Source: Acidimicrobiia bacterium (GTDB lineage Bacteria > Actinomycetota > Acidimicrobiia > IMCC26256 > PALSA-555). From it: a stretch of DNA of 58,766 nt. The stretch is taken from NCBI GenBank assembly GCA_051986275.1, contig JBPYDT010000071.1:1-58766 (forward strand), written 5' to 3'. The translations under genes and the position numbers were made by a program. Under the pieces are notes generated by a model. That model saw nothing but the letters and a program-made list of their open reading frames with translations, ran no database searches and had not been told where the DNA came from. Shown piece by piece: positions 30,832 to 33,555 of the stretch (positions within the stretch are counted from its first letter, which is position 1; each line of letters opens with the position of its first letter).

Positions 30832-31107
30832 TCAGGAGGAGGGGGCGGCCGAGGCCGCAGATCGGGAACGTCTGTTCGAAGGCGGAACCGGGTCGAGCCC
30901 GCCGGCGTGCCACGGATGGCAGCGCCCGACCCGGCGGACGGCGAGCCAGGAGCCCCGGACGGCGCCGTGCACCTCGAGCGCCTCGAGGGCGTAGGCCGAG
31001 CAGGAGGGGTAGAAGCGGCACCGGGGCGGCAAGTACTGGCTGACCAACCGCCAGGCCCGGATCGGCCGCATCAGCAGCCGGGCCGCCGGCGTCGGCCGAC
31101 CGCTCAC
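30832..31107 (-). CDS. yidD: Membrane protein insertion efficiency factor YidD
   Basis: [15 protein letters not shown]...HG...[14 protein letters not shown]. Confidence 0.95.
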
Positions 31108-31562
31108 GGCGACCCGTCCCGCAAGAGCTCCCCCACACGCCGGTGGAGCGCGTCGAAGGGCATCGTCATCGCCTCCCGCCCGGCGCCGAACAGGTAGCTG
31201 GCCCGCGGGTCGAGCGCGTCGGCGTGGGCTCGCACCGCGGCGCGCAGGCGGCGACGGACGCGGTTGCGCTCCACCGCGCCGCCGACACGGCGGCTGACCG
31301 CGTACGCGACGCGTGGCCCATCGGTCGAGCTGCTCGCGTGCACCCGCATGCTGACAGGACCGCGTCGCTTCGCTCGTGTCCGAGCGAGCGTGTTGAACGT
31401 CGCACGGTCGCGGATCCGCCGCGTCAGGCGCCGAGCCGCTTGCGGCCGCGCGCGCGTCGTGCTTTGAGCACCGCACGCCCACCCCGCGTGCGCATCCGGA
31501 CGCGGAATCCGTGCGTCTTCTTTCGCTTGCGGTTGTTCGGCTGGTACGTGCGCTTCACGCAT
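31104..31562 (-). CDS. rnpA: Ribonuclease P protein component (start either ATG 31562 overlapping rpmH, or CTG 31427)
   Basis: [32 protein letters not shown] (RNR motif) and synteny. No ATG/GTG/TTG lies between the rpmH stop and the conserved N-terminal core. Confidence 0.9.
31424..31558 (-). CDS. rpmH: 50S ribosomal protein L34 (44 aa, not in the ORF track)
   Basis: Translated by hand: [52 protein letters not shown] lies 6 nt before the GTG. Confidence 0.98.
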
Positions 31563-31863
31563 GGCCTCCTGGGGCACGTCGATGCGACTCGGTCGCCGCC
31601 GGTGTGGGGGCGGCTCGCTCACGAGTGCGACGCGTGACGATCAGGGCGCAGTGTAACGGCCGCTCGAAACGCCAGCCCAACGCGCGTCGTGCCCCACCTC
31701 GGCCCCTCCCCGGGCCCTCCCGACGACCTCTTGTCGGTGCTCGGAGGCCGGTGCTACGTTCCGCCCCGCTGTCGATCCGGCCTACGACGGCAGACTTCCC
31801 CAAGGGGCTTCGCCCGCGACCGGCCGGTCCGCCCTGAGGGGGGAGGGGCCCCGGGCCCTCCCG

Positions 31864-31895
31864 TTCTCCACAACTGTGGACGCGCCTGTGGACAA
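31864..31895. promoter_or_regulatory. DnaA boxes at the dnaA start (likely autoregulation)
   Basis: TTCTCCACA 31864, TGTGGACGC 31875, TGTGGACAA 31887. Confidence 0.65.
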
Positions 31896-33318: not shown

Positions 33319-33555
33319 GGGGTATGTGGACAACGTTGTGGACTACTGGGGAAACCCTCGCCTGTGCTCTGGATAGCGTGGGCCTCTCCGCCACGCCCCA
33401 CGCTCGCCCGGTGGATCCCGAGGCGAAGCTGGGGAAACCTGGGGATGACAAATCTGGCCTCTGACCTGCGCTAATGGGCTCCTCGTCCACAGTGCACAGG
33501 CCCTACAGCAACGACAAACCTTGGTACTAATAGCAGTGCAGAATCAGGAGCGACC
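33319..33555. other. Replication origin oriC (dnaA-dnaN intergenic)
   Basis: DnaA-box-like 9-mers TGTGGACAA 33325, TGTGGACTA 33337, TGGGGAAAC 33347 and 33430, TGGGGATGA 33440, TCGTCCACA 33483. These are followed by GTGCACAGGCC, a trio-like run CTA CAG CAA CGA CAA, and a short AT-richer patch before dnaN. Confidence 0.85.

Follow-up and report, generated by a model that had tools for sequence, protein, structure and literature searches.

The RNase P protein (RnpA) of this Acidimicrobiia bacterium is likely to be made by a gene-inside-gene route like that of Thermus, with rpmH, encoding ribosomal protein L34, lying out of frame inside an extended rnpA. We consider it probable that a single Shine-Dalgarno (SD) sequence serves two starts, the GTG of rpmH being chosen most of the time and an ATG 4 nt upstream (the -4 ATG) only sometimes; the latter would yield a 152-residue RnpA at a low RnpA:L34 ratio, with a CTG at the rpmH stop possibly adding a short form. 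This reading draws on the anatomy of the locus, its conservation, the avoidance of stop codons in the overlap frame and a trade-off between the -4 ATG and downstream starts, all of which were observed directly. From the selection acting on these features we infer that initiation occurs at position 31562.

The locus lies on the minus strand of the 58,766-nt contig (the window). An AGGAGG sequence (31565..31570) is followed after 2 nt by the -4 ATG (31560..31562), the candidate main start of the extended RnpA, then by a single C and the GTG (31558) that opens rpmH (31424..31558; 44 aa; PF00468, E 1e-21) 6 nt from the SD. Direct reading of the minus strand thus bore out the AGGAGG-CC-ATG-C-GTG arrangement described in the original prediction. 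The frame opened by the -4 ATG (31104..31562, minus strand) runs for 152 codons without a stop, terminating at the TGA at 31106-31104, and encodes a 107-residue core preceded by 45 residues that come from out-of-frame reading of rpmH; the predicted passage of this frame across rpmH into RnpA was borne out by its translation and a PF00825 match. As in Thermus-type nesting, rpmH is contained entirely within the open, out-of-frame rnpA frame, and as far as sequence can tell a single SD precedes both starts. A further in-frame GTG at 31622 has no SD.

The rpmH gene ends with a TGA (31426-31424) that is overlapped by a CTG (31425..31427, minus strand) in the form CTGA. This codon is a possible second, weak start that would give a complete 107-aa RnpA. 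In many Acidimicrobiia, TTGA or GTGA occupies the same position. Overlap of the rpmH stop and the rnpA start as NTGA is a form of translational coupling, and the RnpA core of this genome begins exactly at the CTGA overlap, with no intervening linker. The locus differs from an ordinary coupled rnpA, however, in that the junction codon is a non-canonical CTG and an upstream in-frame ATG is present, with an open frame that is under selection. The codons directly after CTG 31427 are ACG and ATC, and the earliest ATG, GTG or TTG after the rpmH stop in the rnpA frame is the ATG at 31349 (residue 72), within the core. The earlier claim that no such codon lies between the rpmH stop and the core, leaving CTG 31427 as the sole alternative there, was thus correct.

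The next ORF downstream (30832..31107, minus strand), which is probably yidD by its position and likeness, has a GTG that overlaps the rnpA stop as GTGA (31104-31107), a canonical overlap one gene further along the same operon. The rpmH-rnpA locus has the usual arrangement of an origin operon, transcribed divergently from dnaA. DnaA-box-like matches flank dnaA on both sides (31864-31895 and 33325-33491), with 9 in the window vs. 4.4 expected, as fits a replication origin. A scan for sigma-70 promoters returned no sites. The gene for the partner RNA, rnpB, was not found in this assembly, which is 74% complete, and is present in all five congeners searched.

Residues 48-148 of the extended protein (31119..31421, minus strand) form an RNase P protein domain with an intact RNR motif (PF00825, 65.5 bits vs. 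a curated cut-off of 22.3, E 5e-18). Residues R99, N100, R104 and R107 are invariant across 59 extended RnpA proteins, and weak PDB matches were obtained (1a6f, 4jg4); we presume that the long form is functional. The 45 extra residues probably ride along as a passenger, as selection on them is visible only in the absence of stops. No constraint on their amino acids could be seen: substitution counts in rpmH were essentially equal on branches with and without the -4 ATG (633 vs. 611 synonymous and 220 vs. 216 non-synonymous changes, respectively). The Thermus extension is reported to be dispensable or weakly constrained. A protein database search with residues 1-50 of the long form returned only four long forms; the naming of some of these as RNase P protein by JGI reflects gene calling and was not counted as evidence.

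To follow the -4 ATG among relatives, we searched 186 genomes of the order, 168 of which yielded an rpmH. Seven genomes of the AT-rich family f11, five unpublished genomes and second copies were left out and two congeners added, for a final sample of 158. The codon 4 nt upstream of rpmH was ATG in 93 of these, GTG or TTG in 4 and another codon in 61. Carriers span 10 of the 22 families and 30 of the 59 genera, and include 8 of 10 congeners, this genome counted. Within the family of this genome, 12 of 30 members are without it, indicating repeated loss. It is rare in the other orders of the class (3/177 loci, obtained from 226 genomes drawn). Nor is a -4 ATG a habit of this genome: in a crude set of its genes, 0 of 29 start sites preceded by GGAGG plus 6 nt have one.

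Scanning 24 of the 64 parts of a genome collection with a pattern that required GGAG and a -4 ATG, and so would miss other start distances, gave 120 loci. Among the 9 from Thermus/Thermaceae, 8 had an open overlap frame and 1 was cut; the 76 assigned to Acidimicrobiia by title or sequence comprised 72 open, 3 closed and 1 cut. The 35 others comprised 33 closed, 1 cut and 1 that was open but stopped before any RnpA. The method thus recovers the known Thermus case and one other large group. Erysipelotrichaceae/Solobacterium (L175, L197, L203 and others) and Bacillaceae (L209, L211) showed a recurrent GGAGG-4nt-ATG-N-ATG before rpmH, with a -4 frame that closes after 8-29 codons, a conserved-looking out-of-frame start unlinked to RnpA. 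One second rpmH copy (L087, in genome G090) carries a frameshift that fuses the first 31 L34 residues to the RnpA frame, probably an assembly error since the other copy in that genome is normal.

The overlap frame was open in 92 of the 93 carriers vs. 46 of the 61 non-carriers of the order sample. The caveat made at the outset, that this frame is often free of stops by chance, was therefore justified, and an open frame in a single genome was rejected as evidence. The difference between the two groups persisted when genus-state units were counted (29/30 vs. 22/32 open, p=0.006) and at third-position T contents below 0.3 (92/92 carriers vs. 44/53 non-carriers open). Any rpmH codon with a third-position T followed by AA, AG or GA puts a stop into the overlap frame. 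In a first pass with 154 genomes, such risk sites had a T in 2/536 cases in carriers (both in G063) and 23/342 in non-carriers; at control sites, followed by AC or AT, the counts were 23/306 and 26/205, respectively. T before AA, AG or GA is not avoided genome-wide, as judged from a crude set of 1946 ORFs of this genome; among its Arg codons, T occurs at 6.9% before AA/AG/GA and 1.4% before AC/AT.

The same changes were counted on a taxonomy-constrained tree (413 columns, with rpmH third positions excluded). Stop-creating gains of T occurred once on branches with the -4 ATG and 18 times on those without it, for a summed length of 25.8 each, while control gains of T numbered 181 and 197, respectively (Fisher p 2e-4 to 4e-3). 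The lone gain on an ATG branch sits at an internal node, with no stop in any tip below it, and one or two of the 18 gains on non-ATG branches may be artefacts of the same kind. The history of the -4 ATG on this tree involves 11 gains and 9 losses, with an ambiguous root state. These comparisons point to selection keeping the overlap frame open in carriers of the -4 ATG. The outcome that would have refuted the original prediction (relatives without the -4 ATG, or with stops in the overlap frame, that conserve an NTG at the rpmH stop) was checked for and does not apply to carriers, 92 of 93 of which keep the frame open, stop gains being confined to non-ATG lineages.

Family f13 is a case apart: it has no -4 ATG and yet all 17 members are open, with CGT at 0/41 risk sites vs. 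7/52 control sites, which speaks against the main reading. Its loci (e.g. L045, L047, L048, L054) have no -4 start codon and a CTG-only junction, and their rpmH often starts with TTG. No upstream start was shared by the open non-carriers, except that seven loci (L079, L024, L070, L063, L051, L146, L013) have an ACG or ATT at -4; their frame is open and their SD spacing unchanged or nearly so, and these codons could be near-cognate starts or reflect recent decay of an ATG.

We next turn to the junction between rpmH and the RnpA core, for which 415 unique loci were collected. Counting was restricted to loci whose rnpA continues from the junction in the overlap frame (153 carriers and 138 non-carriers), which excluded 109 where rnpA is in a different frame, 5 that have a stop beyond the junction, 1 that gave no match and 9 whose -4 codon is GTG or TTG. 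A canonical start preceded the core in 10/153 carriers vs. 61/138 non-carriers, figures in which the pattern scan has enriched carriers and related loci are not independent; the overlap frame was closed in 5 of the 153 carriers. In family f10, none of the 26 carriers has a junction GTG, while 7 of the 8 non-carriers do and the eighth has an ATG of its own. On three branches of the tree, loss of the -4 ATG coincides with the gain of a canonical start.

Among loci whose rpmH ends in TAA or TAG, a canonical start before the core was found in 0 of 7 distinct complete carriers vs. 10 of 11 non-carriers, and 3 of these 7 carriers also lack CTG (hence any NTG) and ATT, ATC or ATA; several carriers of this type have extra linker codons inserted in frame after the rpmH stop, ahead of the core. 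Four genome loci (L198, L263, L279, L511) have a -4 ATG, an open frame and not a single NTG ahead of the core. When metagenomes were scanned for carriers with rpmH ending in TAA or TAG, 7 matches were obtained, all open and none with a canonical start before the core, of which one is incomplete, one duplicates L279 and three are one sequence in separate assemblies. In the carriers that lack all of these codons, the -4 ATG is, from the sequence, the only start that seems plausible. The loci concerned belong to other Acidimicrobiia lineages or to contigs outside the order sample, so what they establish is the mechanism in the wider group, not in this genome.

The original prediction had relied on the -4 ATG plus the missing downstream start. 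The comparison of -4 ATG carriers and non-carriers upheld the first part, but a missing canonical start had to be rejected as evidence by itself, for CTG-only loci with a closed overlap frame exist. In 15 non-carriers and 2 carriers, all with closed frames, no start other than the CTG at the rpmH stop is available; the congener G006 and three more members of the family of this genome are among them. Since CTG is the sole start in these 17 loci, CTG initiation is likely to be real in this family, and CTG 31427 is a possible second start here.

The anti-SD sequence, GAUCACCUCCUUUCU in 5/5 relatives, pairs with the AGGAGG. Positions -12 to -5 have undergone 0-2 changes each on ATG branches vs. 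13-22 on non-ATG branches. Among the 153 carriers, the spacing between SD and ATG is 2 nt in 135 and 1 nt in 10. Such spacing is tight: in E. coli reporters with UAAGGAGG and a spacer of 2 or 3 nt, activity came 'exclusively' from the downstream GUG (PMC9841429), and the -4 ATG here has the 2-nt geometry. On the distance scale of that paper, the ATG here lies at 10 and the rpmH GTG at the optimal 14, the Thermus values being 11 and 15 by our own count. Weak initiation at -4 could nonetheless be enough, as judged by analogy with E. coli, where RnpA is about 130-fold less abundant than L34 (PMC9945441); one RnpA per 130 L34 might be at or below the detection level of such a reporter. The E. coli tamA gene uses two SD registers (PMC9841429), and by analogy the GA preceding GGAG in 123/145 carriers (GAGGAGG) could offer a second register 3 nt upstream. 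This register would be weak in this genome, which has CAGGAGG.

These spacing data imply very weak initiation at -4, and with the sufficiency of CTG in the 17 closed-frame loci and the repeated loss of the -4 ATG in the family of this genome they speak for an alternative in which the junction CTG supplies most RnpA by termination-reinitiation, with the -4 ATG a real but minor route that is still selected open. The CTG is moreover retained in 92 of the 93 order carriers, and its Ala codon has undergone one synonymous change on ATG branches vs. 18 at Ala29. Retention need not mean use, however, because GTG, ATG or TTG would result from every synonymous change at that Ala codon; the benefit of keeping the CTG may lie in avoiding another strong start. 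A minor route should also tolerate more than the 0-1 stop gains seen, no junction NTG is left in some carriers from other parts of the class, and the coincidence of ATG loss with canonical-start gain on three branches also speaks against this alternative. Anti-SD pairing upstream of the CTG is, if anything, slightly weaker in carriers (mean -2.8 vs. -3.3 to -3.8 kcal/mol, where kin are not independent). We therefore regard a predominant role of the CTG as unlikely, though it is the most serious competitor to predominant use of the -4 ATG.

A stricter version, which we find distinctly improbable, has RnpA made from the CTG only, the -4 ATG being kept as part of a start hairpin or as a decoy that dampens L34 synthesis, and the frame staying open through GC-rich codons and shared ancestry. 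Openness in 75% of non-carriers and in family f13 without a -4 ATG, the retention of a -4 ATG with a closed frame in Erysipelotrichaceae and a UGCGUG/CACGUA hairpin predicted over the start are all compatible with it. Stop avoidance nevertheless follows the ATG, both at matched T content and on the tree, a decoy start needs no open frame, and carriers without any junction NTG exist. The hairpin was rejected as the reason for the -4 ATG: the -1 base varies among the 153 carriers (C85/G39/A29), and the G or A present in 68 of them breaks the central hairpin pair. A further idea, that ribosomes initiating at the GTG of rpmH undergo a -1 slip within that gene into the RnpA frame, would account for both an open frame without -4 initiation and family f13, but leaves unexplained why stop avoidance and the loss of downstream starts follow the -4 ATG. 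An informal look at the locus tables revealed no conserved slippery site, and we give slippage very little credence.

The nested, out-of-frame rnpA/rpmH genes of Thermus thermophilus (Feltens et al. 2003, PNAS 100:5724, as cited in PMC9841429, bioRxiv 520783 and PMC11230408) resemble the present locus in having rpmH wholly inside rnpA, an ATG 4 nt upstream of the rpmH start and one GGAGG before both. Thermus records show ATG-N-ATG and open frames of 162-163 aa, and all 8 readable Thermus/Thermaceae loci are open. The predicted Thermus-style spacing held for the single SD and the -4 ATG, but the spacer is not identical (2 nt here vs. 3 nt in Thermus). The two cases also differ in phylum, in the GTG start of rpmH and the absence of a linker after its stop here, in the second route offered by the CTG, between which and the -4 ATG lineages switch, and in that the present case is known from comparative data. 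A more distant parallel is found in the AUGUG/GUGUG ambiguous start sites of E. coli pqiA, tamA and narQ (PMC9841429), where one initiation region likewise serves two frames; the starts are 2 nt apart there and 4 nt here, where both products are housekeeping proteins.

PMC9841429 (2022) describes the Thermus site as the only bacterial case of its kind, and bioRxiv 520783 and PMC11230408, in the passages concerned, cite Thermus alone. In agreement with the expectation that the layout was not known outside Thermus, our literature search, which covered few subscription papers, found no report of a nested rpmH/rnpA elsewhere. The same search did not turn up an unusual Burkholderia rnpA that may have been reported. 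By BLAST ranking, the RnpA core is nearest to non-nested Acidimicrobiia proteins (up to 67% identity), with Thermus at ranks 112-131 of 140. This does not support transfer from Thermus, and an independent origin is likely, because the core is closest to non-nested relatives and Thermus falls near the bottom of the ranking.

The proposal that an actinobacterial lineage uses a Thermus-like mechanism is thus supported by the 92 open frames among 93 carriers and by carriers elsewhere in the class that have no downstream start. According to the mechanism we envisage, most 30S subunits bound at the single SD would make L34 from the well-spaced GTG. A few would instead select the cramped -4 ATG, read through all of rpmH out of frame and produce the 152-residue RnpA with its 45-residue passenger extension. 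The poor spacing between SD and ATG would set a fixed, low RnpA:L34 ratio. The CTG at the rpmH stop would be the likely ancestral coupled start; here it may add a minor 107-residue form, and in lineages that lose the -4 ATG it would take over or be upgraded to GTG.

More broadly, and somewhat less firmly, we favor the view that this one-SD, two-start route had a separate origin in Acidimicrobiia, not shared with Thermus, is the commoner state in the order, works at SD spacings of 1-2 nt that went unused in E. coli reporters and is interchangeable with a CTG, TTG or GTG junction start, both arrangements holding RnpA at a small fixed fraction of L34. The start of RnpA is ambiguous in the annotation of this abundant group. 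Its natural paired variants, with the -4 ATG present or lost and with CTG, GTG or no junction start, offer tests of the lower limit of SD spacing and of the strength of CTG reinitiation. A clear signal of selection in a second lineage would make the nested arrangement a repeatable means of coupling tRNA maturation to ribosome synthesis.
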